Positions 11,148 to 50,015 are shown, numbered from the stretch's first letter. The stretch: 64,000 nt of DNA from an uncultured Candidatus Melainabacteria bacterium (GCA_934726055.1 CAKVCZ010000003.1:41324-105323); one strand, 5' to 3'. The notes: a model not told the origin generated them from the sequence alone. A program made the numbers and translations.

Positions 11148-11150
11148 AGC

Positions 11151-13085: not shown

Positions 13086-13090
13086 CGGTT

Positions 13091-15469: not shown

Positions 15470-18400
15470 ATGTCGACTAAATTCGCAAAAAGAGTTACTC
15501 CAATGGGTATTCCAGCTACTAATTTGGATTATTTACCCGACTTAATTGAAGTGCAAAAAAAATCATTTGAATGGTTTTTAAAAGAAGGTCTAAAGGAAGA
15601 GTTACTTTCTTTTTCACCTATCAAAGATTATACCGGAAGATTAGAATTGCATTTTCTTCCAAACTACACTTTCGATAATGCTAAATATACTATCGAAGAA
15701 GCAAGAATTCACGATGCAACTTACGCAAAACAACTTCGTGTTATGGTAAGGCTTGTAAACCGTGATTCAGGTGAAATTAAAGAACAAGAAGTTTACATCG
15801 GCGATATCCCTACAATGACTGACAAAGGTACGTTCATTGTAAACGGTGCAGAACGTGTTATCGTATCTCAAATTGTTCGTTCTCCTGGTGTTTACTTTAA
15901 ACGTGAAGTATCTCCAACAGGTAAACGTTTGTATAACGCAACAATTATTCCTAACAGAGGTGCTTGGATTAAGATTGAAACAGATTCTAACGATTTAATT
16001 TATGTTAAAATCGATAAAAACAGAAAGATTTTAGCAACAACTTTATTAAAAGCTATGGGCTTGTCTGTTGCTGAAATGGAAGCATCATTCTCACACTTTG
16101 ATTTCTTAAAGAAAACATTGGAAAAAGATACTGCTGAAACTACTGAAGATGCATTAATTGATGTTTATAAGAAATTAAGACCTGGTGATCCTGCATCAGC
16201 TCAAGGTGGACGTCAAATTATCGAAGCTCGTTTCTTCGATGAAAAGAAATACGATATTGGTCGTGTAGGTCGTTATAAATTAAATAAAAAATTGAACTTG
16301 AATATTCCTGCTTCTCAAAGAACGTTGACTATTCAAGATATTGTTTCATCAATTGAATACTTAATTAACTTAACTTATGATGAAGGTTCAGTTGATGATA
16401 TTGACCACTTAGGAAACAGACGTGTTCGTTCAGTTGGTGAATTGTTACAAAACCAATTTAGAGTTGGTCTAAGCCGTATTGAACGTATTGTTAAAGAAAG
16501 AATGACACTACAAGATAGTGAAACTCTTACTCCGTTGAACTTGTTAAATACAAAACCTTTAATCGCTTCATTAAAGGAATTTTTCGGAAGTTCACAATTA
16601 TCACAATTTATGGATCAAATTAATCCGTTAGCTGAATTAACTCACAAAAGACGTATTTCAGCATTAGGACCTGGCGGTTTGCAAAGAGAAAGAGCTGGAT
16701 TTGCAGTACGTGATATTCACCCTTCTCACTATGGACGTATTTGTCCGATTGAAACACCTGAAGGTCCAAACGCAGGTTTGATTGGTTCATTGGCTACACA
16801 CGCAAAAGTTAATGATTATGGATTCATCGAATCTCCATTCTTTGTAGTAAAAGATGGTGTTGTAACAGATGAAGTAGTTTATATGTCTGCTGATGAAGAC
16901 GAAAATTATCGTTGTGCTCCTGCAGACGTTGAGATGAATGAAGATAGAACTTTCAAAGATGCACAAGTTCCTGTTCGTTACAGATCAGAATTTATCATGT
17001 GTGAATCTTCAAAAGTTGACTATGTTGGGGTTTGCCCAATTCAAATTATTTCAGTTGCAACATCAGTAATTCCATTTATTGAACACGATGATGCTAACCG
17101 TGCATTGATGGGTTCAAACATGCAACGTCAATCAGTACCTCTATTAATAACTGAAAGACCAAGAGTTGCAACAGGTATGGAAGCAAGAGCAGCAAAAGAT
17201 TCAGGAATGCTTATTGTATCAGAATACGATGGTGTTGTAGAAAGAGTTGTAGGTGAAGAAATTACAATTCGTGATACGCAAGGTGTTCCTCACGTATATC
17301 AATTAATGAAATATGTAAGAAGTAACCAAGATACTTGTATTAACCAAAAACCAATTGTAAAAGAAGGTGATAAGGTTCAAGCAGGTGATGTAATTGCAGA
17401 TGGTGCTTCAACATGTGGCGGTGAACTTTCATTAGGTAAAAATGTTTTGATTGCATATATGCCTTGGGAAGGATATAACTTCGAAGATGCTATTCTTTTA
17501 TCAGAAAGATGCGTTCACGATGATATATTCACATCAGTTCACATTGAAAAATTAGAAATTGACGCAAGACAGACTAAATTAGGACCGGAAGAAATTACTC
17601 GTGAAATTCCGAATGTTTCAGAAGATTCATTAAGACATTTGGATGAACGCGGTATTGTTCGTATCGGTGCAAGAGTATATGCTGATGATATTTTGGTAGG
17701 TAAAGTTACACCAAAAGGTGAATCTGAACATCCGCCTGAAGAAAAATTATTAAGAGCAATTTTTGCTGAAAAAGCAAGAGATGTAAAAGATAATTCATTA
17801 AGAGTTCCTCACGGTGAAGGTGGTAGAGTTCTTGATGTTAAGGTATTTGACAGAGAAAAAGGTGATGAATTACCACCTGGAGCAAATACAGTAATCAGAG
17901 TTTACATTGCTCAAAAACGTAAAGTATCAGTAGGTGATAAGCTTTCAGGACGTCATGGTAACAAAGGTATCGTATCAAGAATTCTTGCAAAAGAAGATAT
18001 GCCATTCTTACCTGATGGTACTCCTGTTGATGTTGTATTGAACCCACTAGGTGTTCCTTCTCGTATGAACGTAGGTCAAACTTATGAACACTTATTAGGA
18101 TTAGCATCATACTTAACAAAGGATTATTATGCAGCACCTTCATTTGATGAACGTTTCGGTAAAAATATGTCTGAAAAAGTTACAAAAGAAGAATTGTTGC
18201 GTGGTATAAAAGAAACAGGTTGCGACTGGGTTGGCGAAGACGGTAAAGTTCGTTTAATCGACGGTCGTACAGGTGAACCATTTGACGAGCCTGTTGCAGT
18301 AGGGTTAACTTACTTCTTAAAACTTGTTCACTTAGTTGATGATAAGATCCATGCTCGTTCAACAGGTCCATACTCATTAGTAACTCAACAACCATTGGGT

Positions 18401-18784
18401 GGTAAAGCTCAATTTGGTGGTCAAAGATTTGGTGAAATGGAAGTTTGGGCTCTTGAAGCTTATGGTGCAGCATATACACTTCAAGAAATGCTTACAATCA
18501 AATCAGATGATGTAAACGGACGTAACAGAGCATACGAAGCAATTGTTAAAGGTGATAATATTCCAAGACCTGGTATTCCTGAATCATTCAAGGTACTTGT
18601 AAGAGAATTACAAAGTATTGGTTTGGATATTACAGTTGCTAAGAAAGATGGCGTTGAAGTTGACTTGATGAGTGATATTGATGACTTAAGAAAAGCAGCT
18701 CCAAAACGTACATTATCTGATATTGATTCAGAATTATTAAATATTAATTTCTTTGAAACACCAACAACTTTCGGTGATATATAA
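15470..18784 (+). CDS. rpoB: DNA-directed RNA polymerase subunit beta
   Basis: Full-length beta subunit with hallmark stretches ([49 protein letters not shown]). Confidence 0.97.
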
Positions 18785-18790
18785 AATTTA

Positions 18791-18820
18791 ATTTCTTCAA
18801 GGACTTATCCTTGAAGAAAT
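18791..18820 (+). other. perfect 13-bp inverted repeat (hairpin) in the rpoB-rpoC1 spacer
   Basis: atttcttcaagga (18791-18803) / tccttgaagaaat (18808-18820) with a 4-nt loop. Only a short T run follows, so it looks more like a processing or attenuation hairpin than a strong terminator. Confidence 0.5.
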
Positions 18821-18877
18821 TTCATATCAAAAGAAAAGGTAAAAGACAAACTAACTCAACAAAGGAGAAAAATATAA

Positions 18878-20587
18878 ATGTCAACAAGTATAGATTATTT
18901 TGACTATATACGAATCAGTATAGCATCACCGGAAAGAATTTTAAAATGGTCATACGGTGAAGTTACAAAACCTGAAACTATCAACTACCGTACATTGAAA
19001 CCGGAAAGAGATGGTCTGTTCTGCGAAAGAATCTTTGGACCAACAAAAGACTGGGAATGTTATTGCGGTAAATATAAAAGAGTAAGACATAAAGGTATCA
19101 TTTGTGAACGTTGTGGTGTTGAAGTTACAGATTCAAAAGTACGTCGTCACAGAATGGGACACATAAAATTAGCTGCTCCTGTTTCTCACATTTGGTTCTT
19201 AAAAGGTATTCCTTCATATTTAGGTTTACTTTTAGATATGACATTAAAAGATTTGGAACAAGTAATTTACTTTAACAGTTATGTAGTTATTGATCCTGCT
19301 GATACAGAATTCAGAAAACTTCAACTATTAAATGAAGAAGAATATGAAGATTATTTAATGGAACATGAAGAAACTGAATTAAAAGTAGGTATCGGTGCAG
19401 AAGCAATTAAAGAATTACTTGGCGAAATTGATGTAAAAGCATTGGCAGAAGAAATCAGAAATGAATTGGCTGCGGGTGTAAATTCAGTTCAAAGAAAAGG
19501 TAAATTGATAAAACGTTTAAGATTATTAGATTCATTAATTTCAAGTGAAACAGATCCAACTTGGATGATAATGGATGTACTTCCTGTAACACCACCTGAT
19601 TTAAGACCTATGGTTCAATTAGATGGCGGACGTTTTGCTACATCTGACTTAAACGATTTATACAGACGTGTAATTAACAGAAACAACCGTTTACAAAGAC
19701 TATTAGAAATGGGTGCTCCTGAAATTATTGTAAGAAACGAAAAACGTATGTTACAAGAAGCAGTAGATGCTCTAATTGATAATGGTCGTCGTGGTAGAAC
19801 AGTTGTTGGTCCAAATAACAGACCATTAAAATCATTGTCTAACATCATTGAAGGTAAACAAGGTCGTTTCCGTCAAAACTTGTTAGGTAAACGTGTTGAC
19901 TATTCAGGTCGTTCAGTAATTGTAGTTGGTCCTACATTAGAATTGAACCAATGCGGTTTACCAAAAGAAATGGCAATTGAATTGTTCAAACCGTTTGTTG
20001 TAAACAAATTAATCGAACGTGGATATGTTCAAAATATCAAATCAGCTAAAAAGAAAATTGAACGTTCAGAAGCGGTTGTTTGGGATATTTTAGAAGAGGT
20101 AATTGATGGACATCCGGTAATGTTAAACCGTGCTCCTACTCTTCACAGACTTGGTATTCAAGCATTTGAACCAAAACTTGTTGAAGGACGTGCAATTCAA
20201 TTACATCCGTTGGTATGTACAGCATTCAACGCTGACTTTGATGGCGACCAAATGGCTGTTCACGTTCCATTGAGTATAGAAGCTCAAACAGAAGCAAGAA
20301 TGTTGATGTTAGCAACAAATAACATTTTGGCTCCTGCAACAGGTAAACCTATTATTACACCATCACAAGATATGGTTATGGGTATGTATTATTTAACACT
20401 TATTAAAGATGAAAATATGGTACCTACAAAATATTTCTACAATTTCCAAGATGCAATTGCTGCATTAGAAGCAAATGTTATCAAGTTACATGACAAAATT
20501 TATGTAAGAGATGAACATGGCAAACGTCTTGAAACAACAGCAGGTAGAATTATTTTTAACGAAGCAGTAAGAAACGCAATTTTATAG
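18878..20587 (+). CDS. rpoC1: DNA-directed RNA polymerase subunit gamma (N-terminal half of beta-prime)
   Basis: Zinc-binding CxCGK...CERCG, the catalytic [12 protein letters not shown] motif, then a stop after about 569 aa. The remainder of beta-prime is a separate downstream gene. Confidence 0.95.
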
Positions 20588-20605
20588 TATAAGGGTGAAA
20601 TAATA

Positions 20606-23600
20606 ATGACAAATACATATACAACACAAAAGAAAACAATTGATTTCATTAATAAACAAATGGATAAGGGTGCATTAAAAAACTTACTTGCACAGATTTA
20701 TCTTGAATTTGGTGGTGCAAAAACAGCAACATTGGCAAATACCTTAAAAAATTTAGGATATCATTACGCTACAAAATCAGGTGTAACGATTTCTATTTCG
20801 GATTTGTCAGTTCCACCTATTAAACAACAATTATTGAAAGAGGCTGATGAGGAAATCGGAAAATCAACAAAGAGATACTTAAAAGGTGAAATTACCGAAG
20901 TAGAAAGATATACAAAGGTTATTGACACTTGGTCAGAAACAACAGCAAAATTAACAGAACAAGTAGTTAAAAACTTTGACAGATTGAATCCGGTATATAT
21001 GATGGCATTCTCAGGTGCCAGAGGTAATCTATCACAAGTATCACAATTGGTTGGTATGCGTGGTTTGATGGCTGATGCACAAGGTCAAATTATCGACTTG
21101 CCAATTCGTTCAAACTTTAAAGAAGGGCTTTCTTGTACAGAATACATTATTTCTTCATACGGTGCCCGTAAAGGTCTTGTAGATACAGCGTTGAAAACAG
21201 CCGACTCAGGATACTTAACAAGACGTTTAGTTGACGTTGCACAAGACGTTATTATTCGTGATGTAGATTGCCATGGTAAAAAACACATTATGTTAAAAGG
21301 TATCTATGATGGAGATACTTGTATTGTTCCTCTAATTGACAGATTGTTAGGTAGAACAATTGCTCAAGATATTCTTGATAAAGATGGCAATGTATTAATT
21401 GAATCAAATACAACATTAGATAGAAAAGATATCAAGAAAATTGAACGTTCAGGTATTGAATTAACAGAATTGGCTGTTCGTTCAGGTTTGACTTGTGAAT
21501 TAGAATATGGTATTTGCCAAAAATGTTATGGTTGGGCGATGACAACACAAAAATTAGTTGATGTTGGTGAGTCAATCGGTATTATCGCAGCTCAGTCAAT
21601 TGGTGAACCCGGAACACAATTAACAATGAGAACATTCCACACAGGTGGTGTATTCAAGGGTTCAGGTGCAATGAAACATATTATTGCTGATGAAGCAGGT
21701 GAAGTTGTTTCAGATGTAAAAACTCGTGAAGTTAGAACTCGTCATGGGGATGTTGTACAAATCCTTATTCTTGAATCTGACGTTGAAGTTAAAGGAGAAA
21801 AGAAATCAAAGAAATATCACATTCCTGCAGGTGCGATTATTTTATTCAAAAAAGGTCAAAAAATCGAAAAAGGTTTTGAACTTGCAGAATACGAACCTGT
21901 ATCACAAGGGGATGGTTCTCGTTTAACAGAAAAAGCAACAAAAGATATTACTTCAGATTTGTCTGGTGAAGTTGTATATAATGATTTTACAGCTGATGAA
22001 AAGAAAGATAGACAAGGTAATATTTCAAGAACAGCAAACAAGAGTGGCGTAGTATGGGTTCTAGGTGGTGATGTTTATAATCTACCTGGTGGCTCAAAAG
22101 TTCTTGTAAAAGATGAACAAACAATAAAAGAAGGTGAAAAATTAGCAGAAACTCTAACAATTTGCGAACATGGCGGTGAAGTTAGAGTTGGTGATGATTT
22201 AGAAATTGAAGAAGTAAAATTTGAAGGCAAGAAGATTAAAAAGATTGTTTCAGGTAAAGAATTAACAATTGTAATAGCTTCAATTTCTCCATCAAATGCT
22301 ACATTTGAACAAACTAAAAAAGAACAACTTTGGACAGTTGATAAGACAGGTGAAAAATATATTGTTAAATCTCCTGTTGATACAACTGTTGAAAACGGTA
22401 TGATTATTGCTGAATTAATCAGTGAAGATTGTACAGTTTCATCTTCAGGTGAAATTAAATATATTGATGTTGAAGTAGATGAAAATCAGATTATTACAAA
22501 AGCAGGTGATGTAGTATTTATTCCTGAAGAAGTTCATCAATTGAACAAGGAAGCTTCTTTAAAAATGGTTGAATCCGGCACACACGTTACTGCAGGTACT
22601 GAAGTTGTAAAAGACGTATATTGTCATTTAGACGGTATTGTTGAAATAAAAGAATATAACGATGTTATTCATGAAGTTACAATCAGACCTGGCGAAATTC
22701 ATCAACTTGCAAATGTTTCAGAATTAAAAGTTGAAGAAGGTGAAGTTGTTAAGAAAGGTACTTTAATTGCAGATGGAATTAAAGCAAAAGAAACTTCAAT
22801 TGTAACAATAATGGATTCAGAAATAGAAGATTTAGATATTGAAGATTTGGATGAAGAAATGGATTCATCTATGAATATTGATGAAGACAATATTGCAAAT
22901 CAGCCAATTCAAATCTTAGTAAGACCTGTTCAAGTTATTAAAGTTGAACAAAAAGATGTTTCAATTGATTTTAATACAACAGATGAGTTGATTGACATTG
23001 TACCTGTAACGCAATTGCAATATAAAGATGGTGCAAGAGTTAGAAACTTAGATGGTGCAACATTAATCAGAACAAGTTTGGTTCTTCAAATGCAAGGTTA
23101 CCTATCACACTTAAAAGGTATGGTAGAACTTGATGAAAAAGGTGCTTTGAAGATAGTTGTATTAGATAAGTTAATTGTTCGTCGTGAAATTGAATCAAAT
23201 TCAAAATTAAACGATTCATTGCAAACAGAATTGCTAGTAAAAAACGGTGAACAAATCGAACCGAAAACACCGGTTGCAAAAACTTGTGTATTAGCAATGA
23301 ATTCAGGTATTGCATCAATTAAAAATGAATCAGAAGAAGCAAGAAGATTGCAATTGATTTGTGAAAATAATAAATCAAAAGTTGCTATCAAATCAAAAGC
23401 AGTAGTAAAAGTTGGTCAATTCATAAAAGAAGACGATTTACTAACTGAAGGTGAAGACAGAGCTCCTGTTTCAGGTCAAGTGGTTGATGTTACAAAATCA
23501 GAAATTACAATCAGAAACGGCAGACCATATTTAATCAGTCCAGGTACAATGCTTCAGGTTGCAGCAGGTTCGTTGGTACAACGTGGTGATATGCTTGTTA

Positions 23601-24472
23601 CATTGGTTTATGAAAGACAAAAAACAGGTGATATCGTACAAGGTCTTCCAAGAGTTGAAGAGTTGTTAGAAGGTAGAAAACCAAAAGACTCTGCAATATT
23701 GGCAGAAGAAGATGGTATTGCTATCATTGAAACTGATGATGATATGCCAAGATTGTACTTGCAAACAGAAGATAATTCAAAAACAGAAATTAAATTTGCA
23801 ATTGATGCAAATATAGTTGTTCAAAACGGACAAAAAATTAAAAAAGGTCAACCATTAACAAGTGGTCCTTTAAATCCTCATGATGTTATGAGATTATGTG
23901 GTCCGGAAGTTGCACAACAATATTTAGTAGATGAAGTACAAAGAGTATATCGTTCTCAAGGTGTAGAAATTGCCGATAAACACGTAGAAATTATCGTAAG
24001 ACAAATGACTAAAAAAGTTAAAGTTGTTGATGCAGGCGATACAAATCTGTTACCTGGAGAATTGATAGAAGTACAAATCTTTGAAAAAGAAAATGAGGCA
24101 GTAGCTGCAAATGGTGGGCAACTTGCAACATGTGAATATATGTTGTTAGGTATTACGAAAGCATCATTAAATACTGAATCATTTATTTCAGCTGCATCAT
24201 TCCAAGAAACAACAAGAATTCTTACAGAAGCAGCAGTAGATGGTAAAAAAGACTTGTTAAGAGGTTTGAAAGAAAACGTTATTATTGGTCGTTTAATTCC
24301 TGCAGGTACAGGTTACTATCACTTGACTCATGCAAATGAAGAAAGAGATAAAGAAGCTCAAAGACGTGCAGCACAAAGAAACCAAGCAAGAAAACCATCT
24401 GCTATTTTGGAAGAAATTGAAGGAATGTTTGGTGCTCCTGAATTTTCAATTGATGATGAGATAATTGGTTAA
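20606..24472 (+). CDS. rpoC2: DNA-directed RNA polymerase subunit beta-prime (C-terminal half, with a large lineage-type insertion)
   Basis: Own ATG 18 nt after the rpoC1 stop. Contains the bridge-helix/trigger-loop regions (GARKGLVDTALKTADSGYLTRRLVDV, GEPGTQLTMRTFHTGG) and conserved C-terminal blocks (SFISAASFQETTRILTEAA). The 1288-aa length implies a long internal insertion. Confidence 0.95.
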   Translation: MTNTYTTQKKTIDFINKQMDKGALKNLLAQIYLEFGGAKTATLANTLKNLGYHYATKSGVTISISDLSVPPIKQQLLKEADEEIGKSTKRYLKGEITEVERYTKVIDTWSETTAKLTEQVVKNFDRLNPVYMMAFSGARGNLSQVSQLVGMRGLMADAQGQIIDLPIRSNFKEGLSCTEYIISSYGARKGLVDTALKTADSGYLTRRLVDVAQDVIIRDVDCHGKKHIMLKGIYDGDTCIVPLIDRLLGRTIAQDILDKDGNVLIESNTTLDRKDIKKIERSGIELTELAVRSGLTCELEYGICQKCYGWAMTTQKLVDVGESIGIIAAQSIGEPGTQLTMRTFHTGGVFKGSGAMKHIIADEAGEVVSDVKTREVRTRHGDVVQILILESDVEVKGEKKSKKYHIPAGAIILFKKGQKIEKGFELAEYEPVSQGDGSRLTEKATKDITSDLSGEVVYNDFTADEKKDRQGNISRTANKSGVVWVLGGDVYNLPGGSKVLVKDEQTIKEGEKLAETLTICEHGGEVRVGDDLEIEEVKFEGKKIKKIVSGKELTIVIASISPSNATFEQTKKEQLWTVDKTGEKYIVKSPVDTTVENGMIIAELISEDCTVSSSGEIKYIDVEVDENQIITKAGDVVFIPEEVHQLNKEASLKMVESGTHVTAGTEVVKDVYCHLDGIVEIKEYNDVIHEVTIRPGEIHQLANVSELKVEEGEVVKKGTLIADGIKAKETSIVTIMDSEIEDLDIEDLDEEMDSSMNIDEDNIANQPIQILVRPVQVIKVEQKDVSIDFNTTDELIDIVPVTQLQYKDGARVRNLDGATLIRTSLVLQMQGYLSHLKGMVELDEKGALKIVVLDKLIVRREIESNSKLNDSLQTELLVKNGEQIEPKTPVAKTCVLAMNSGIASIKNESEEARRLQLICENNKSKVAIKSKAVVKVGQFIKEDDLLTEGEDRAPVSGQVVDVTKSEITIRNGRPYLISPGTMLQVAAGSLVQRGDMLVTLVYERQKTGDIVQGLPRVEELLEGRKPKDSAILAEEDGIAIIETDDDMPRLYLQTEDNSKTEIKFAIDANIVVQNGQKIKKGQPLTSGPLNPHDVMRLCGPEVAQQYLVDEVQRVYRSQGVEIADKHVEIIVRQMTKKVKVVDAGDTNLLPGELIEVQIFEKENEAVAANGGQLATCEYMLLGITKASLNTESFISAASFQETTRILTEAAVDGKKDLLRGLKENVIIGRLIPAGTGYYHLTHANEERDKEAQRRAAQRNQARKPSAILEEIEGMFGAPEFSIDDEIIG

Positions 24473-40343: not shown

Positions 40344-40587
40344 TTCATTCGCTATAAATTTGCTTTCAGCAAATTAGTCGTTCATTTCAAATTGTTCACA
40401 GGGACGTGCTGGGTTCGCTATCGCTCACACGGTGCACTTGTCAAAATCCGCTTTTGGATTATTGACTGTTCACAATTTTTCATTCACTATAAATTTGCTT
40501 TCAGCAAATTAGTCGTTCATTTTAAATTGTTCACAGGGACGTGCTGGGTTCGCTAATGCTCACGCGGCGCACTTGTCAAAATCCGCT
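40344..40587. repeat. two direct copies of a 109-bp element (40344-40452 and 40479-40587), each containing an 8-bp/3-nt-loop hairpin and a GC-rich core
   Basis: Read directly from the sequence. The two copies differ at only about 7 positions. Each contains aatttgct-ttc-agcaaatt and cagggacgtgctgggttcgct. Copy 2 ends exactly at the nrdJ stop codon. Confidence 0.9.
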
Positions 40588-42565
40588 ACGAACAACCGGA
40601 ATATCCGCAGTTAGGACAGATGAAACATCCTTCTGCCATGTGAATTTTAGTTCCGCATTCAGGACATGTTACTTCTTTAACTTCACCTGTCGGATTGTAT
40701 TCTTCTGCTTTAGGTTCGTCTGTTGTTTCAACCTTTTCTTCAACTTTTTCTTCTTTTTTCTTTGTCAAATTCATTGGTTGAATTGGTCTGCAATTGTTTC
40801 TGTAAACCGTAATACCTTTTAGATTGTTTTCGAATGCCAAAACGTATGTATCTTCAATATCTTTGCGAGTTGCACTTTCAACAAAGTTTACAGTTTTTGA
40901 TACTGCATTATCTGTGTGAAGTTGGAATGCTGCTTGCATTTTTACGTGCCAATATGGAGATACATCATGTGCTGTTGAGAATAAGTGTTTAGATTTTTCA
41001 TCAACACCATTAACATGAGCAATAGTACCTTCTTCAGATATTTGACGCATAATATCATCATTGAAGAAACCATGTTTAATAGCATAATCTTTAAATATTG
41101 GGTTTACTTCAAGCATTTCTGTGCCATCCATAACGTTTCTCATAAATACAAGACCGAATAAAGGTTCAATACCGCCAGATGCAGATGCAATCATTGAAAT
41201 TGTTCCTGTTGGAGCGATACAAGTTGTTGTAGCATTTCTGATGCCGTATTTTTCAATTTGGTTATCTAATTCTTTCCACATTTCATCAGTAATCATACCG
41301 GCTGATTTGCCTGCATATTTAGTTGCTAAGAAATGTTGGTTATCATAAATGCTGCCTTTGAAGTTTGCAAATGATCCACGTTCTTTTGCTAAATCAATGG
41401 CTTGAACTTTTGAATGGTAATCAATAAATTCCATAACTTGTGCGGCAAGTTTTATACCTTCTTCTGAATTATATGGAATTTCCATTTTCATTAACATATC
41501 AGCCCAACCCATTACACCTAAGCCGATTTTTCTGTTATTTTGAACCATCTCTGCAATTTTTGGTAACGGATAATTATTTACTGTGATAACGTCATCCAAG
41601 AAAATTATTGATAATTTAGTGATATCTTTTAATTTATCCCAATTAATTTTACCGTCTTCAACCATTAAACCTAAGTTAATTGAACCTAAGTTACATGCTT
41701 CAAATGGTAATAGAGGAACTTCACCACATGGATTAGTAGATTCGATTTCTCCAATTAAAGGTGTAGGATTATCAGCATTCATCTTATCAATAAAGATGAT
41801 ACCGGGTTCACCTGTTGACCATGCATTATTAACTATCTTATCGAAAACTTCTTTTGCATTTAATTTTCCTGCAACATCTTTTGTGTTTGGATTGTATAAT
41901 TCATATTCAGTATTATTTTTAACAGCGTCCATAAATTTATCTGTTAAAGCAACTGAAATATTGAAGTTGTTTAATTTTGAAGTATCATTTTTGCAGTTGA
42001 TAAATTCTAAAATATCAGGATGGTCAACTCTTAAAATACCCATGTTTGCACCACGTCTTGTTCCGCCTTGTTTAACAGCTTCAGTTGCCGCATTGAAAAC
42101 TTCCATAAACGATACAGGACCTGATGAAACACCCATTGTTGATTTAACAACACTGTTTTTTGCTCTCAATCTTGAGAATGAAAAACCTGTTCCGCCACCT
42201 GATTTGTGAATTAGAGCAGTATTTTTAACTGCTTCAAATATGCCTTCTAAAGAATCTTCAACCGGCAATACAAAACATGCTGACAGTTGACCTAATTCTC
42301 TACCTGCGTTCATTAATGTTGGTGAATTTGGCATAAAGTATCTTTTGGTAATTGCTTCGTAAAATTTTGCAGATAATTTGTCTGCATCTTCTTGTGTTTT
42401 ACCGTATTCTAATTCTGCTTTAGCAATAGAATCTGCAACCCTTTTGAACATTGTTGCAGGAGTTTCTGTGCATTTACCTTCTTTATCTCTTTTTAGGTAT
42501 CTTTTTTCAAGTACCTTAATTGCGTTTTCTGATAATTCTACTTTATCTTGCATTTCCACGCTCAC
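40586..42565 (-). CDS. nrdJ: adenosylcobalamin-dependent (class II) ribonucleotide reductase
   Basis: GTG start 5 nt after GGGAGG. Active-site TNPCGE block, a class II type length of about 660 aa, and a C-terminal Cys-rich tail CPECG...CPNCGYSGCS. Confidence 0.85.
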   Translation of the reverse strand: MSVEMQDKVELSENAIKVLEKRYLKRDKEGKCTETPATMFKRVADSIAKAELEYGKTQEDADKLSAKFYEAITKRYFMPNSPTLMNAGRELGQLSACFVLPVEDSLEGIFEAVKNTALIHKSGGGTGFSFSRLRAKNSVVKSTMGVSSGPVSFMEVFNAATEAVKQGGTRRGANMGILRVDHPDILEFINCKNDTSKLNNFNISVALTDKFMDAVKNNTEYELYNPNTKDVAGKLNAKEVFDKIVNNAWSTGEPGIIFIDKMNADNPTPLIGEIESTNPCGEVPLLPFEACNLGSINLGLMVEDGKINWDKLKDITKLSIIFLDDVITVNNYPLPKIAEMVQNNRKIGLGVMGWADMLMKMEIPYNSEEGIKLAAQVMEFIDYHSKVQAIDLAKERGSFANFKGSIYDNQHFLATKYAGKSAGMITDEMWKELDNQIEKYGIRNATTTCIAPTGTISMIASASGGIEPLFGLVFMRNVMDGTEMLEVNPIFKDYAIKHGFFNDDIMRQISEEGTIAHVNGVDEKSKHLFSTAHDVSPYWHVKMQAAFQLHTDNAVSKTVNFVESATRKDIEDTYVLAFENNLKGITVYRNNCRPIQPMNLTKKKEEKVEEKVETTDEPKAEEYNPTGEVKEVTCPECGTKIHMAEGCFICPNCGYSGCS

Positions 42566-42730: not shown

Positions 42731-42735
42731 AAAAA

Positions 42736-42806
42736 GGCGACACCCAGATTCGAACTGGGGGATAAAAGCTTTGCAGGCTTCTGCCTTACCACTTGGCCAT
42801 GTCGCC
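42736..42806 (-). tRNA. tRNA-Cys (anticodon GCA), no encoded CCA
   Basis: The reverse complement folds by hand into a cloverleaf. Acceptor GGCGACA/TGTCGCC, D stem GCC/GGC, anticodon stem GAAGC/GCTTT with loop CTGCAAA, T arm CCCAG-TTCGAAT-CTGGG. Confidence 0.9.
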
Positions 42807-42870: not shown

Positions 42871-42911
42871 AAAAAAAGAGTAAATTCTTTTTGAATTTAC
42901 TCTTTTTTTTT
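42871..42911. terminator. bidirectional rho-independent terminator downstream of the first HNH-motif gene
   Basis: gagtaaattc (42878-42887) / gaatttactc (42893-42902) with a 5-nt loop. A7 run on the 5' side and T9 run on the 3' side. Confidence 0.75.
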
Positions 42912-42916
42912 GTTTA

Positions 42917-44335
42917 TTATGCTGCTAAATCATTATTACCGCTTTGTTGTTCTTCAACTTTTGATGTTTTTTCGTTGTTATTTGCAGATTCAGGAAATCT
43001 CATAATTTTTCCGCCATGTCTTTTCTTTTTAGATTTTTTTGTGTGTTTAACTTCGGTAGTGTTAGTATCCGTTGTTTCTTTCTTTTCTGATGGCTTATTA
43101 TAATCATGGAATCCGTGATAAGAACCTTGATATGCACCGCTTGCATTGTTTCTTTCTTTAATATCCATAGTTGGTTTTGCGATGCCGCGTTCTTTTCTTA
43201 TTGCATCAATTTCTTCAGGATTTTTAACTTTTAAAATTACTTTGCCATTCGTTTCGTTAAAAATAGCCTCTTTTAAATCTAGCGGATAATCATCATAGTT
43301 GCCGCCAATTTTACCTTTTATAATTTCTTCTGTTACTGCATTTAAGTTGTCTTGAATATTATCCGGCATGTTTGGATATTTTTTCATCCATTCATCATAA
43401 GACATGTTACCACGAGAGCTGTTACATTCTTGGCATTCGCCCATGTAGTTGTTAGTTGCATTAGGACCGCCTTTTGATTTTGGATGAATATGTTCTGCTG
43501 TTACTACTGCTTTTTGAATCAATCTTTGCGCTAATTTTCTTTCATTGCCACTCATTGCAGTATTTAACATTTTACCAATTGCTTTTTCTGATTCAGGTAA
43601 TTGAACTGCTATATCCATTAATTCATGAACTTTTTCGTGGTCTAAATTATGTTTCTTTTCTAATCTTGTAATTTGTGTTAAGAATCCCGTTCTGTCAAAT
43701 TTTGCATATTTAGAACCTCTAGGCAATTGTCCGATTAATTTTGAAGGAACATTAAATTTAGTTAATAATTCATATTCACATGCGTATTGTATTGGATTTT
43801 TTTGTCCAAAAAGTTCTTGTGATTTATGATTTGTTTTTTGTAATACATCTATTTGTTCGTCTTTTAATACTCTTTCAGGATTTGGTTCTGTTCTTGAAAT
43901 TGCTGTTGATAAAGATGCATCCGGCATTCTTTTTAATTGTTTTTGAATGTAGTGAACAACCGCTTTTTCTTCTGCTCTGAAGTAATCCATGTTTTTGTTT
44001 AAACAGTTATTTAATGTGTATCCTGATGAGTTGCTTGCTTCAAATACAAATTCATCAATTTGAGCATTTGTCATCATTGGACGACCACAGCATGTGCAAG
44101 GCATGTCTTCTAACTCTTTTACTTTAAAGTTTGCTGTTGAACATGCAAATCCTGTAAATGCAGGGTTAACCATTTGTGAGCCTATAAAATAGTTTCTGAT
44201 AATTTGTGATGCTTTTGAAGAATTGTCAACAATTGGATTTGTAACTTTTGCATCTTTAGTTTGTTGATTTTGTGTTTTTTGTAATGTTGCTACTGTCGAA
44301 ATTGGTGTAGCTGCAGAAATTCTTTGTACTTTCAT
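42917..44335 (-). CDS. hypothetical protein with CxCCG zinc-ribbon-like motif and HNH-type nuclease motif (paralogue 1)
   Basis: PCTCCGRPMM near residue 80. TAEHIHPKSKGGPNATNNYMGECQECNSSRGN matches the (D/E)H-I-x-P-x-x-x-GG...N...C-x-x-C-N-x-x-(K/R)-G pattern of HNH beta-beta-alpha-metal nucleases. Lys-rich tail ending in NDLAA. Confidence 0.6.
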   Translation of the reverse strand: MKVQRISAATPISTVATLQKTQNQQTKDAKVTNPIVDNSSKASQIIRNYFIGSQMVNPAFTGFACSTANFKVKELEDMPCTCCGRPMMTNAQIDEFVFEASNSSGYTLNNCLNKNMDYFRAEEKAVVHYIQKQLKRMPDASLSTAISRTEPNPERVLKDEQIDVLQKTNHKSQELFGQKNPIQYACEYELLTKFNVPSKLIGQLPRGSKYAKFDRTGFLTQITRLEKKHNLDHEKVHELMDIAVQLPESEKAIGKMLNTAMSGNERKLAQRLIQKAVVTAEHIHPKSKGGPNATNNYMGECQECNSSRGNMSYDEWMKKYPNMPDNIQDNLNAVTEEIIKGKIGGNYDDYPLDLKEAIFNETNGKVILKVKNPEEIDAIRKERGIAKPTMDIKERNNASGAYQGSYHGFHDYNKPSEKKETTDTNTTEVKHTKKSKKKRHGGKIMRFPESANNNEKTSKVEEQQSGNNDLAA

Positions 44336-44569
44336 TTTGAGACCTTACCTGTTTCTTTCCTAAATAATTCGTGTTTTTTCTTTTCGTGCTTATTTCTTAT
44401 TTTTTTACAATTTCGCTATTTTAATTTAATATTCAATTTTTCTATTTTATTTTTATGAGACCATGCTTTTGATTATATTTTAAACCAAAAAAATTTTTTG
44501 TATATAGTTTTGTATAATTTATTTAGATGATTTTTATAATTATTAAAATTTGAATATAAATTTTAATAA

Positions 44570-45730
44570 TTACGCAGCTTGTTGAGCTTTATTTTTTCTT
44601 CTGCAATGAGCATCTTGACGAGCTTTAGTAATTTCTTGCGGATTTTTAACTTGTAATTTGATTACACCGTCAGTTTCTCTATGGAATGTTTTTTTGATAT
44701 CTTCCGGATAATCGTCGTATTTTTGACCTAAATTACCGTTAATGATTCTTTCAGTTACTTCGTTAATATTTTTTTGAACACTTCTTGGCATGTTTGGAAA
44801 GTTTTCCATCCATTCATTTAAAGGCATGTGTCCACGTTTGCTATTGCAATCTGCACATTCTGCAACATAATTAGCAGTATTATCAGGTCCGCCAAGTGTA
44901 TCAGGATGGATATGTTCTGCTGTTGAAACTGCGGTTTGAGCTAATCTGTGAGCAATTGATTTGTCATCACGATTGCTGTGAGCGTATTTTACGATAAATG
45001 CTTCTATTGAGTTTTGCGACATAGGCAATTTTACCGCAATATCAAGCAATTGACCTGCATATTCTTTATTTTCCATATCTTTTGTCGCATCAACTATGTT
45101 TTTTAAGAATGGTTTTCTTTGGAAGAAATGTTCTTCATTACTGTTTTTAATATCATTTAAAGCTTTTTTTATACATTTTTCAACTGCATTATCTTTTCCT
45201 AAAGGTTCTGCCTTTTTAGATAATTCTTTTAAAACATTTTTTTGTTCATCTTCAAGTAATGCTTTTGCATTTGGTGAATATTGATTTAATAAACCTTTTA
45301 TTGTTAATTTAGGATTTTTTTCGGATGTTTTCATTAAAAAGTTAACAACCGCTTTTTCTGTACCTCTGAAATAATCCATGTGTGCAGCTAAATGTGATTG
45401 TAGTTCTTTACCTTTTAAACCAACTGCTTTTTCTTCAAATGCTTTTACATCACTGTTTCTAAGCATTTTTCTTCCGCAGCATGCACAAGGAATGTCTTTT
45501 TCTTGTTTAACCTTAAACTCACTCTTATCGCAAGAATGTCCTTTGAAACTTACTAATTGTTCGCCCCTGAAATAATTAGAAATTGCTTGCGAACTAATTT
45601 TGTTATCTGCAATCGGATTAGATACATTGTTGTACACTAAAGTGTTTTTGATTGCATTCTCTCTGTTTAAATTTGTGTTTTGAACTCTTGAATTAATCCC
45701 GATATTATTTACTAACATAAACCTGACCAT
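44570..45730 (-). CDS. hypothetical protein with CxCCG zinc-ribbon-like motif and HNH-type nuclease motif (paralogue 2)
   Basis: PCACCGRKML and TAEHIHPDTLGGPDNTANYVAECADCNSKRGH. Collinear with paralogue 1 over most of its length. The start is uncertain; MLVNN at 45718 is an alternative. Confidence 0.6.
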   Translation of the reverse strand: MVRFMLVNNIGINSRVQNTNLNRENAIKNTLVYNNVSNPIADNKISSQAISNYFRGEQLVSFKGHSCDKSEFKVKQEKDIPCACCGRKMLRNSDVKAFEEKAVGLKGKELQSHLAAHMDYFRGTEKAVVNFLMKTSEKNPKLTIKGLLNQYSPNAKALLEDEQKNVLKELSKKAEPLGKDNAVEKCIKKALNDIKNSNEEHFFQRKPFLKNIVDATKDMENKEYAGQLLDIAVKLPMSQNSIEAFIVKYAHSNRDDKSIAHRLAQTAVSTAEHIHPDTLGGPDNTANYVAECADCNSKRGHMPLNEWMENFPNMPRSVQKNINEVTERIINGNLGQKYDDYPEDIKKTFHRETDGVIKLQVKNPQEITKARQDAHCRRKNKAQQAA

Positions 45731-45961
45731 AAAATTTGAAAACTAACTTACACTCATATAATGTTCGTAAAAAATTTTTTTGCTACTTGAAATTTTAAAC
45801 TGTTACAATACTTTATAATGTAATATTTACACTTATTCTAGCCTTTCATATATTTATATGATTTTTAATTAAAGTTTGTTTACAAAGTGTACAAAAATTT
45901 TTGTTTATGTAAAAATGAACTTGGATAATAATAGTATTTATTTTTTAGTGAAGGAGAAAAA

Positions 45962-48443: not shown

Positions 48444-50015
48444 TTATTTAATCGATACAAATTCAACATTTATATTTTCTTCTTGTAATTTTTTTTGTAA
48501 AGTTTGAATAGAAATTTCTACTTCTTTTGTGTTTTCTTTTTTTGATGCATACCCTGATTCTTTTAAAACGATTATTCCTTTTTTATGGTTAACACTTATA
48601 ATTTCATAACTGTGGTTAGTGCCTATTGATATATTTCTAGCATACAAGTTACTGTTTCTCCAAAAAGTATCTTGAGGACTTTCTGCTAACTTTATCTCTT
48701 CACTACGGAATGGAGTTGCATTATTTGTGTTTTTATTTTTATTATTATGAAAAGCTACTAATTTATTAGAGTCAAATAAATTAATTGAGAGTTCATTTGC
48801 AGAAACAATTTTGGAAGTTGTATTTTTACCTGTTAAAAGTTTAACAACATGAGTTGGCGATATTAATCCTTTTTCATTTCCTGTGCCTACATTTCCAGAT
48901 TTTTCTAATTCTTGTCTAACAACATAAGCAAGAGCTTTAAATTCGCTGTCTCCATTGCTACCTGTATTTTTGTAATATTGTTCCATTGCTTCTAAAGAAT
49001 ATTCATTACCATTAGATTTAGATCCAATTGTAACAGTTTTGTCAGGCAAATGTACGGTATATGAACCATCGACATTGCTTTCTACCATATTTTCAACTTT
49101 ATCATGGAAATCTGCATCTTTTAATAATGTATTTATAACAGCATATATTGCACAATCAGCACTTTCTTTGCCTTGACTTATTTGACCATAATCTACTTTA
49201 TTATTACCGCTAAGTGCTGCCAGATGAGTTTTTACATCATTAGAAACTTCTGATGGGTCTTTTTGTAATGTATGAAAAGAATCTCTATCTGATTCCATCT
49301 GTATTTTTCTACCAGAAGAAATACTTTGAGGTTTAGCCGGCTTTGCTTCTTGGAATTGCTCATTAGCAATTTTTTGAGCTTTTTCGATATCTTCCGGTTT
49401 CATTTTTTTTTCAAGTTTCTTTAATTTTTGTTCTGCTTGTTCAAGTGCTGGTTTATTAATGAAAGAAGAAGCAGTTTCTTGCATATCTGCTAAATCAGTG
49501 GCATTTGAAACATTTTCATCAGAAAATTCATTGTTACATTTATCTTTTTGTGTTGGAGTCATATCATTGCTGTTTATACTCTTACACAATGAATTATTTC
49601 TGCTTATGTAGTTTTCATTTTTCTTAGCTTCGTTTAATTCATTTTGAGAAGAATCGAATTCTTCTTTTGCTTGGAGATATTCTTTATATGCCTCAATGTA
49701 TTTTTGATTTTTAGCAATAAAACTTTTTGTTTCAGCTTCATTTAGTTTTCCATTTGCTATCAATAAATCCAATTGAGTAGAACCTACATCTCGTAGGCTA
49801 TTCAGCAAATCTCCAATTTCAGGATTTTCTTTAGTACCGGATGGATGATTACAAATTTCATTATTTTGTGTATTTCCGAAAATGCTGCAGTTCATTCCTT
49901 GTGCAAAATTTTTACCGGTTTCAAAAAGTTGTTGACGGGCTGCATCAGCTTTTTTTTGTGCTACGTTAGCAGCGTTCTTTGCTTGTTGAAGATTTTTATC
50001 AATTGGTGGTGTCAT
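48444..50015 (-). CDS. hypothetical protein: coiled-coil N-terminal half and a C-terminal half with a calpain-like Cys/His signature
   Basis: SQGKESADCAIYAVINTLL resembles the calpain/CA-clan Q-G-x-x-x-D-C-(W/Y)-x-x-A nucleophile block. GTNHSYEIISV...IVLKESG, about 180 aa later, resembles the GHAYSV...LRNPWG block. No signal peptide. Confidence 0.55.
   Translation of the reverse strand: MTPPIDKNLQQAKNAANVAQKKADAARQQLFETGKNFAQGMNCSIFGNTQNNEICNHPSGTKENPEIGDLLNSLRDVGSTQLDLLIANGKLNEAETKSFIAKNQKYIEAYKEYLQAKEEFDSSQNELNEAKKNENYISRNNSLCKSINSNDMTPTQKDKCNNEFSDENVSNATDLADMQETASSFINKPALEQAEQKLKKLEKKMKPEDIEKAQKIANEQFQEAKPAKPQSISSGRKIQMESDRDSFHTLQKDPSEVSNDVKTHLAALSGNNKVDYGQISQGKESADCAIYAVINTLLKDADFHDKVENMVESNVDGSYTVHLPDKTVTIGSKSNGNEYSLEAMEQYYKNTGSNGDSEFKALAYVVRQELEKSGNVGTGNEKGLISPTHVVKLLTGKNTTSKIVSANELSINLFDSNKLVAFHNNKNKNTNNATPFRSEEIKLAESPQDTFWRNSNLYARNISIGTNHSYEIISVNHKKGIIVLKESGYASKKENTKEVEISIQTLQKKLQEENINVEFVSIK

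Follow-up and report, generated by a model that had tools for sequence, protein, structure and literature searches.

A pair of paralogous HNH genes

The window analysed here is a stretch of 64,000 nucleotides from an uncultured Candidatus Melainabacteria bacterium (GCA_934726055.1, CAKVCZ010000003.1:41324-105323), and its minus strand carries, between positions 42,917 and 45,730, two adjacent genes for HNH-motif proteins, hereafter A and B (Table 1). An original prediction, made from the sequence without database searches, had described them as collinear same-strand paralogues of 472 and 386 amino acids (aa). Open reading frames (ORFs) of these lengths were found there, and BLASTP aligned the two products collinearly across 354 aa with 40% identity (E 5e-87), a sequence likeness that places their paralogy far beyond chance. 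The length of B needs a small correction: since all orthologues start at the fifth ORF codon (45718), and so does the gene called on the source contig, the true product of B is most likely a protein of 382 aa. The two motifs that had been noted, F-K-V-K...P-C-x-C-C-G-R-x-M and T-A-E-H-I-H-P...N-Y...E-C-x-x-C-N-S-x-R-G, occur in both proteins, and 48 family members show little or no variation in them. Our best reading is that A and B belong to an undescribed zinc-finger HNH (beta-beta-alpha-metal) family that, according to named records, is limited to Melainabacteria.

Both proteins had been predicted to contain a genuine HNH core, and the proposed Pfam searches bore this out. The model HNH_5 (PF14279) scored 33.8 bits with A and 30.4 bits with B, both above its gathering cut-off of 27.5, and the model HNH (PF01844) scored 23.4 bits with A, above its cut-off of 21.4, and 19.6 bits with native B, below it. 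In the AlphaFold models two strands and a helix surround the catalytic motif (strands 268-273 and 288-292 with helix 293-299 in B; strands 277-280 and 299-301 with helix 302-308 in A). The alignment of 48 sequences revealed, in B numbering, invariant columns at C82, C84, C85, G86 and M89 in the first motif and at T270, E272, H273, H275, P276, G280, G281, N287, E291, C292, C295, N296 and R299 in the core; the catalytic positions E272-H273, N287 and N296 are fixed in all 48, and their equivalents in 57. The top PDB sequence match to B was the Cas9 HNH domain 8d2k (E 8.4e-4, aa 269-307), and this profile search of the PDB returned nothing but HNH cores. Foldseek, which had also been proposed as a check, was less informative: it found no whole-protein structural neighbour at E<=1e-3 in the PDB (A and B models) or BFVD (B model) and merely weak matches to small HNH proteins (E about 2), so the fold assignment rests on profiles and secondary structure. 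Profile, motif and modelled secondary structure all place A and B in the HNH superfamily, and, judged from residue conservation, the family very probably consists of active metal-dependent HNH nucleases.

An HNH domain split by a helical insert

In the native proteins the Pfam HNH models align only from model positions 9-15. For a splice test, the zinc knuckle was fused in silico to the catalytic core, and the scores were compared with those of native and core-only controls. HNH_5 rose in A from 33.8 bits (native) and 35.7 (core only) to 41.0 (spliced) and in B from 30.4 and 31.3 to 35.7, while HNH rose from 23.4 and 27.4 to 33.8 in A and from 19.6 and 24.3 to 31.0 in B. Both models aligned with every spliced construct from model position 1, with positions 1-12 now included, and a distant long-form relative, P0091, behaved in the same way. 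Because removal of the insert lets the Pfam HNH models align from position 1, A and B each read as one HNH domain interrupted by a helical insert of 175-190 aa between the first CxxC and the core. The predicted CxxC...CxxC zinc site agrees with this, its Cys residues being invariant and the splice test positive; in the family at large the knuckle reads CxxC, its two Cys being C82 and C85 in B. The original prediction had seen in the first part of the proteins an unfamiliar N-terminal targeting region, which has to be given up: the CxCC supplies the first half of the zinc finger, displaced from the second, and the helices between it and the core form an insert within the HNH domain. The helical nature of the middle region, predicted at the same time, is evident in both AlphaFold models. 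The insert had no match in Pfam, PDB sequences or Foldseek searches, and apart from HNH no Pfam family was found in A or B at E<=10.

The models, built with the family alignment, reached a mean predicted local distance difference test score (pLDDT) of 85.1 and a predicted template-modelling score (pTM) of 0.79 for B, and 76.6 and 0.72 for A, which has the same fold. The common layout begins with about 40 disordered residues, a helix of lower confidence and the Cys knuckle with tiny strands, and continues with ten helices, the two strands and helix of the catalytic motif, and 4-5 further helices. The N-terminus is N/Q/K-rich, predicted to be disordered, and its first residues, M-(K/R)-(I/V), are conserved; among 145 family representatives, 94 begin with M-[KR]-[IVL], followed by N/K/S-rich disorder, compared with 18 of 386 background ORFs.

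The additional Lys-rich tail of about 90 aa that had been predicted for A is present, but it is more than Lys-rich, with conserved motifs and a -(A/V)A end. Short helices are predicted up to aa 397 and disorder from about aa 418, with pLDDT below 50 for aa 418-472. Tails of the A clade (A-type proteins P0001-P0035) share YQGSYHG and a K/H-rich patch with (I/V)VRFPE, and 32 of these 35 proteins have a C-terminal (A/V)A, whereas none of 386 background ORFs ends in AA. The window protein ends in ...DLAA, and a final LAA resembles SsrA-type ClpXP degrons; it may be a lead toward proteolytic control of A.

Table 1. Features of the A-B locus (window coordinates) and of the helicase-linked loci (coordinates of each locus)
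Feature	Position	Strand	Basis
Gene A, split-finger HNH protein with C-terminal tail, 472 aa	42917..44335	-	ORF, Pfam, AlphaFold
Gene B, split-finger HNH protein, ORF of 386 aa	44570..45730	-	ORF, Pfam, AlphaFold
A zinc knuckle C80-x-C82-C83	44087..44098	-	Invariant columns, splice test
B zinc knuckle C82-x-C84-C85, first half of the HNH zinc finger	45476..45487	-	Invariant in 48 sequences, splice test
A helical insert, aa 90-276	43508..44068	-	AlphaFold helices, pLDDT mostly >90
B all-helical insert, about 175 aa (aa 92-265), between zinc knuckle and core	44936..45457	-	Ten helices, pLDDT 95-98
A beta-beta-alpha-metal catalytic core, aa 277-309: E281-H282, N296, C301-x-x-C304-N305	43409..43507	-	Pfam, invariant columns, secondary structure
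B beta-beta-alpha-metal catalytic core, aa 266-300: E272-H273, N287, C292-x-x-C295-N296	44831..44935	-	Pfam HNH_5/HNH, model, invariant residues
B conserved C-terminal helical region, aa 301-386: W307, P312, Q319, Y338-D340-Y341, VKNPEEI	44573..44830	-	Invariant or nearly invariant columns, pLDDT >90
A tail, aa 384-472: YQGSYHG, K/H-rich patch with IMRFPE, terminal ...LAA	42920..43186	-	AlphaFold, A-type comparison
Stereotyped N-termini	44320-44335 (A), 45703-45718 (B)	-	M-[KR]-[IVL] pattern (representatives P0083-P0227)
B-A spacer, AT-rich, 234 bp	44336..44569	-	Between gene ends
Conserved AGGTAAGGTCTCA element directly before the ATG of A	44338-44350	-	In 15 of 18 orthologous spacers
A/T-only perfect 15-bp inverted repeat, 6-nt loop, overlapping the B stop codon	44537-44572	-	Hairpin search
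Promoter-like conserved block, A/T run then CATTATA, about 35-45 nt before the likely B start	45757..45780	-	Alignment of upstream regions
Terminator-like hairpin directly after A: 17-bp perfect stem, 5-nt loop, T runs on the flanks	42871..42909	-	Hairpin search
tRNA-Cys, sole tRNA in the window	42735-42806	-	tRNA search
Helicase plus long-form loci (long forms about 750-960 aa)	L085 5377-10265; L090 4347-9664; L104 2956-8637; L105 3330-8277; L086 2646-9877

Tandem arrangement, synteny and selection

The same-strand tandem of B followed by A recurs in 19 independent loci in addition to the window (L001, L004, L010-L017, L019, L021-L028). In a distance tree the A proteins and the B proteins form separate clades, and the duplication is therefore older than these species. 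At 25 loci a gene for an H+-PPase adjoins family members. Another type of pair, more divergent, is found just after recG in 8 loci; at one of them, L007, recA follows beyond the pair on the opposite strand, so that the pair stands between recG and recA. Several singleton types each have their own fixed neighbours. The neighbours of the other paralogue types include genes for an alcohol dehydrogenase, a POT transporter, a radical SAM enzyme, a YhdP-like protein, a DUF2400 protein and rplJ-rplL, and no functional theme was found among them. Downstream of the A-B pair the genes vary between loci. A small Cons_hypoth95 (RsmD-like) methyltransferase gene is convergent to A in 14 related loci and absent from the window and from L004- and L007-type loci.

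The ratios of nonsynonymous to synonymous substitution rates (dN/dS), calculated with NG86 on orthologue pairs, were 0.03-0.12 for B and 0.06-0.17 for A among close pairs (dS below 0.6), and stayed below 0.45 for all pairs, which shows that both genes are under purifying selection. Neither the B-A spacer nor the region after A holds a plausible same-strand small ORF of the immunity type, no methyltransferase gene lies near the window pair, and no flanking repeats or repeat arrays were found there. The original prediction had seen no immunity, methylase, Cas or toxin-partner gene; the PADLOC, Rfam, ORF and repeat checks of the window agree. The fixed synteny, the purifying selection and the missing immunity ORF mark A and B as vertically inherited core genes; toxin cassettes, mobile elements and typical defence islands fit them poorly. 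A core-genome, non-defence role is probable. Of the three functions that had been offered for the pair, defence and competition gained no support from PADLOC, from the housekeeping synteny or from the searches of phage, plasmid and viral collections, and nucleic-acid processing is the best fit.

Family size, architecture and taxonomic range

When 1.84 billion cluster representatives (clusters at 50% identity) were searched exhaustively with a profile, 2876 matched at E<=1e-3, the majority of which will be generic HNH proteins, and 327 at E<=1e-30; among the best 150 listed, the matches at E<=1e-30 span nearly the whole module. That best-150 list provided 145 additional representatives, in which [DE]HxxP was present in 132, CxxCN in 129, and a CxxC about 190 aa upstream in 123. 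Fifty-nine of the 145 are long forms of at least 590 aa with the module at the N-terminus. Their tails of about 200-590 residues, typically 300-400, are E/K/Q/L-rich and coiled-coil-like, and Pfam detects solely the HNH core in these proteins.

The 51 and 35 relatives that word-indexed searches yielded all stem from metagenomes of gut or rumen, with 'Candidatus Gastranaerophilaceae bacterium' as the sole informative name. A scan of GTDB, with one genome per species, found 204 coding stretches; among the best 80 of these, all informative names are Gastranaerophilales, Melainabacteria or 'Cyanobacteria bacterium UBA'. Other labels occur on a few bins, as Alistipes (senegalensis), Muribaculaceae, Anaerovoracaceae or a Methanobacteriaceae archaeon (odd labels stand on L010, L018, L019, L021, L030, L036, L041, L046, L058, L061, L070-L072, L079 and L081); since these bins have the same genes in the same synteny, errors of binning or labelling are the probable cause. 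Judged by the named records, the family is specific to the Melainabacteria/Gastranaerophilales lineage, as had been proposed. The survey of copy number and neighbourhoods suggested at the same time revealed 4-5 separate family loci in several metagenome-assembled genomes, with each paralogue type keeping its own neighbours.

No relatives were found in phage and plasmid records by tblastn or in viral contigs by a pattern-limited scan, and PHROG models reach the HNH core only; a phage or plasmid origin was rejected on these grounds. None of the Pfam, NCBIfam, PADLOC and PHROG libraries used describes the architecture, the lineage restriction or the helicase-coupled forms, and the searchable literature gave nothing relevant on the family or on an operon of HNH and Ski2/Hel308 genes.

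Elsewhere in the window (15470-24472, plus strand) rpoB is followed by a split rpoC: rpoC1 encodes 569 aa and rpoC2 1288 aa, domain 5 of the latter containing a large insertion. This split is characteristic of Cyanobacteriota and supports the Melainabacteria origin of the window, which itself matches a metagenome contig of 223.7 kb.

Helicase-linked long forms

At five of eight sampled long-form loci, the long form follows, on the same strand, a gene that encodes a Ski2/Hel308-like helicase (870-1013 aa). P0091, P0114, P0117 and P0121 follow the helicase immediately (gaps of 12 nt in L085, 3 nt in L104 and 4 nt in L105, and a 4-nt overlap in L090), and P0230 stands one paralogue further, as a 560-aa family member is located between it and the helicase in L086. 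The linked helicases contain DEAD and Helicase_C domains, with DSHCT in L085 and L105. Their best NCBIfam models are Hel308-type DNA helicases, at scores far below the equivalog cut-offs, and they match the PADLOC models HamB and PDC-M23B over the helicase cores (E 1e-19 to 1e-31). Because identity among the long forms is only 24-34%, the arrangement with the helicase has survived deep divergence. A metagenome scan with a tighter long-form alignment gave 12 loci, with the helicase in none of them.

Intergenic regions and neighbouring genes

The original prediction had drawn attention to about 230 bp of AT-rich non-coding DNA before each gene and to the adjacent tRNA-Cys gene. The leaders are real, 234 bp before A and 231 bp before B, the latter being a divergent intergenic region shared with the H+-PPase gene; however, the B-A spacer measures 55-153 bp at orthologous loci, a range of 55-234 bp with the window, and is thus not conserved in length, its RNA structure does not exceed that of shuffled sequence (z +0.38), and an Rfam scan matched nothing in the spacers and only the tRNA. 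The spacer contains a single, implausible ORF of 44 aa on the opposite strand. Structured or regulatory leader RNAs were rejected on the basis of the Rfam result, the z-score and the variation in spacer length.

The conserved spacer and upstream elements sit near start codons, one before that of A and one before that of B. In 18 orthologous regions upstream of B, aligned by eye, blocks of the TTTTTAGGGxTATTATA type recur, and the block in the window is a putative promoter. For the independent transcription of the two genes that had been suggested, the observations are such a conserved element before each start and the lack of a G+C-rich terminator after B; the A/T-only hairpin that overlaps the B stop codon is too weak to be called one. 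The tRNA-Cys gene does lie next to the pair in the window, but no tRNA was found nearby at the three other locus types checked (L001, L004, L007), and an association with the pair was therefore discarded. Both the tRNA adjacency and the long leaders are incidental.

Several other observations concern the surroundings. Flagellar genes occur near H+-PPase-adjacent family members, flagellins at 7 loci and fliG-fliH-fliI at 5; examples are L031 (5243-9063), with fliG-fliH-fliI and a 118-aa ORF, and L001 (757-3825), with three tandem flagellin genes. This proximity probably reflects synteny rather than functional coupling. Across the H+-PPase gene in the window (48444-50015, minus strand) is a gene for a 523-aa protein without a Pfam match and with a Q/N/K/E-rich N-terminal half; it is conserved on the source contig (L107), and L001 has flagellin genes on that side of the H+-PPase gene. 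The large subunit of ribonucleotide reductase (659 aa; 40586-42565, minus strand) has a K/E-rich segment and a zinc-ribbon-like C-terminus (CPECG...CPNCG). Upstream of rpoB (8889-15169, plus strand), three tandem ORFs of 752, 644 and 692 aa each end in Peptidase_S74, the endosialidase-chaperone domain known from tail-fibre or tailspike-like proteins of phages.

Proposed function and alternative explanations

An HNH site cuts one strand, as in the HNH domain of Cas9 and in nicking HNH endonucleases. A and B, with one active site each, would cut one strand apiece, and an A-B heteromer would bring two active sites onto one substrate. Because the conserved pair is catalytically intact and each HNH site cuts one strand, such a heteromer is the simplest explanation of the tandem; we propose it tentatively, its probability falling somewhat short of even. 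The inserted helical domain and the conserved C-terminal helices could serve as surfaces for assembly or for recognition of a substrate or partner, while the basic tail of A may tether it to nucleic acid and its -LAA end may mark it for proteolytic control. The substrate would be chromosomal DNA that is branched or undergoing unwinding, in repair or recombination. This suggestion draws on the long forms that are operonic with a Ski2/Hel308-like helicase and on the other pair between recG and recA, and a role in DNA repair or recombination is possible but doubtful. The composite reading, in which A and B are core-genome HNH nucleases that act as a pair on chromosomal nucleic acid, appears to us evenly balanced between right and wrong. 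A bolder version, a Melainabacteria-specific HNH machine of insert-mediated heteromers or helicase-coupled long forms that carries out a core repair, recombination or junction step done by unrelated enzymes elsewhere, with an SsrA-like degron on A, is unlikely. The grades given here to nuclease activity, core-genome role, heteromer and repair role are a matter of judgement, not of computation.

Several points weigh against the paired-nuclease reading and its proposed role. The heteromer is deduced solely from the conserved tandem, and many genomes also carry singleton paralogues, so family members need not occur in pairs. As for the helicase, it is linked to distant long-form relatives rather than to A or B: no Ski2/Hel308-like helicase was found in the window or beside any short-form member, and it is missing at three of the eight long-form loci (L088, L092, L093). 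The recG, recA, dnaX and uvrA neighbours each represent one syntenic block and could be coincidence, and other paralogues adjoin unrelated genes, such as those for the alcohol dehydrogenase, the POT transporter and the radical-SAM enzyme and rplJ-rplL. Helicases of the DSHCT/Ski2 type (Ski2/HelY) also act on RNA, and for this reason the substrate could be RNA or an RNA:DNA hybrid, an alternative to be taken seriously.

That last possibility corresponds to an RNA-processing or decay system, in which the nucleases would work with a Ski2/HelY-like helicase on structured RNA or RNA:DNA hybrids. The DSHCT domain of the linked helicases is typical of Ski2/Mtr4/HelY, one short paralogue follows rplJ-rplL, and the window pair adjoins a tRNA gene; however, the tRNA adjacency is not conserved, the top NCBIfam models of the helicases are Hel308-type DNA helicases, and the closest HNH relatives (Cas9/IscB type, phage HNH and endonuclease VII-like PHROGs) are DNA enzymes, so we consider this explanation quite unlikely. 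Anti-phage defence would make the family the effector of a Hachiman-like helicase-nuclease system, with A and B as stand-alone or decayed derivatives. In its favour are the HamB and PDC-M23B matches of the helicases beside the long forms, a weak match of the 560-aa paralogue in L086 to the Septu HNH protein PtuB (E 1e-6), the 4-5 loci of several genomes, and an integrase, a helix-turn-helix protein and an SNF2 helicase encoded just downstream at L001-type loci. On the other hand, the HamB matches cover generic helicase cores only and Hel308 DNA-repair models fit better. PADLOC gave no significant match for A, B or the long forms, the best being Cas11b for B (E 0.015) and LmuB for P0230 (E 8e-4), both in helical or coiled-coil regions, and a defence annotation of the HNH proteins was dropped. 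Since each paralogue type also keeps a fixed housekeeping position across species, unlike defence islands, and selection is strongly purifying with no horizontal spread seen in phage, plasmid and viral-contig collections, we regard a defence function as decidedly unlikely.

Basic tails, long coiled coils and many paralogues per genome would suit non-catalytic nucleic-acid binders, nucleoid-associated or scaffold proteins that retain a degenerate HNH finger for binding alone, the first two being traits of structural DNA-binding proteins. Such an explanation is very improbable, as the general-base His, the preceding acidic residue and both Asn ligands are invariant in 48-57 members and about 90% of distant representatives retain the catalytic residues, as active enzymes would be expected to do. 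It is also highly improbable that the proteins are exported nucleases or toxins whose N-terminus, with its M-(K/R)-(I/V)-N-like start, acts as an export signal, for example for flagellar type III secretion. The frequency of the M-[KR]-[IVL] start, the N/K/S-rich and predicted disordered first 45 residues and the flagellar genes near H+-PPase-adjacent members brought up this idea, yet the proteins lack Sec and Tat signals as well as translocation and receptor domains, the spacer and the downstream region hold no immunity-like ORF, which an active nuclease in the cytoplasm would need, the flagellar genes lie on the other strand, where synteny can explain their proximity, and the long forms pair with a cytoplasmic helicase. 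A flagellin-like N-terminus was considered and rejected, as the flagellins of the lineage begin with MAITVNTN and lack the family motif; export retains no more than a low probability. A further alternative, HNH endonucleases of homing or mobile elements, comes to mind since HNH domains are common among homing enzymes and PHROG HNH families match the core. This reading is effectively refuted by genes that are free-standing at conserved positions outside introns, inteins, phages and transposons, without flanking repeats, under purifying selection and without relatives in the mobile-DNA collections searched.

Melainabacteria, the non-photosynthetic sister group of the cyanobacteria, are frequent in animal guts and lack a genetic system, and their DNA and RNA metabolism is almost uncharted; a large, strongly conserved family with several paralogues per genome therein builds a known catalytic module in an unusual way, by placing a folded domain inside the zinc finger. 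If the proteins are indeed paired nickases or junction enzymes, they would represent a lineage-specific route for a core nucleic-acid transaction and a new scaffold for how HNH active sites are targeted. If they are merely redundant nucleases, the gain is an improved annotation, namely a new family with corrected domain boundaries.

Comparison with known systems

A and B share with enzymes of the Pfam HNH_5 and HNH families the catalytic [D/E]-H...N...C-x-x-C-N core, the beta-beta-alpha fold and, by prediction, the CxxC...CxxC finger. In those enzymes the first CxxC lies a few residues before the His, whereas in A and B it is 175-190 aa away, and A and B have in addition a disordered N-terminus and, at the C-terminal end, about 85 aa of conserved helical sequence.

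With Cas9 and IscB they have in common the D/E-H-I-x-P...N...N motif, the top PDB match 8d2k and local NCBIfam matches to IscB (25-29 bits, cut-off 175) and Cas9d (25-27 bits, cut-off 375). The IscB matches, and that of Cas9d on B, span the HNH region alone; Cas9d on A (aa 124-321) enters the helical insert. Unlike Cas9 and IscB, A and B lack RuvC, REC and protospacer-adjacent-motif-interacting domains, a CRISPR array and a guide-RNA-like element. A search for a guide RNA beside the genes gave no Rfam match but the tRNA and no repeat array, and the spacer is unstructured. A CRISPR or guide-RNA link, considered because of the weak IscB and Cas9d matches, was rejected, as mostly the HNH region is aligned and repeats are absent.

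T4 endonuclease VII is a dimer with helical dimerisation elements that makes paired nicks on branched DNA. It is a zinc-containing beta-beta-alpha-metal nuclease, as A and B are predicted to be; a PHROG 'endonuclease VII' model weakly matches the core of A (E 2.7e-5), and some paralogues adjoin recG/recA or Hel308-like helicase genes. The likeness is confined to the core, however, and the size and helical domain of A and B are unrelated to it. Hachiman offers a parallel in its two-gene helicase-nuclease logic, as the long-form relatives are operonic with a Ski2/Hel308-like helicase that matches HamB. HamA, on the other hand, is a nuclease of the DUF1837/PD-(D/E)xK type rather than HNH, no Hachiman model matched A, B or the long forms, the family occupies syntenic core positions, and the window pair has no helicase.

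In contrast to the HNH nucleases of colicins and polymorphic toxins, A and B have a short disordered N-terminus, with neither an immunity ORF nor an N-terminal delivery domain; in contrast to restriction-modification systems, the window pair has no cognate methyltransferase; and unlike homing endonucleases, the family shows conserved synteny in 25 loci and was not found in the mobile-DNA collections searched. A and B are thus not members of the Cas9/IscB, Hachiman, toxin-immunity HNH, homing or restriction-modification groups. Their catalytic module is familiar; what the libraries and literature searched do not describe is the zinc finger split by an unmatched insert, the restriction to one lineage, the spread of several paralogues over core positions, and the helicase-coupled coiled-coil forms.

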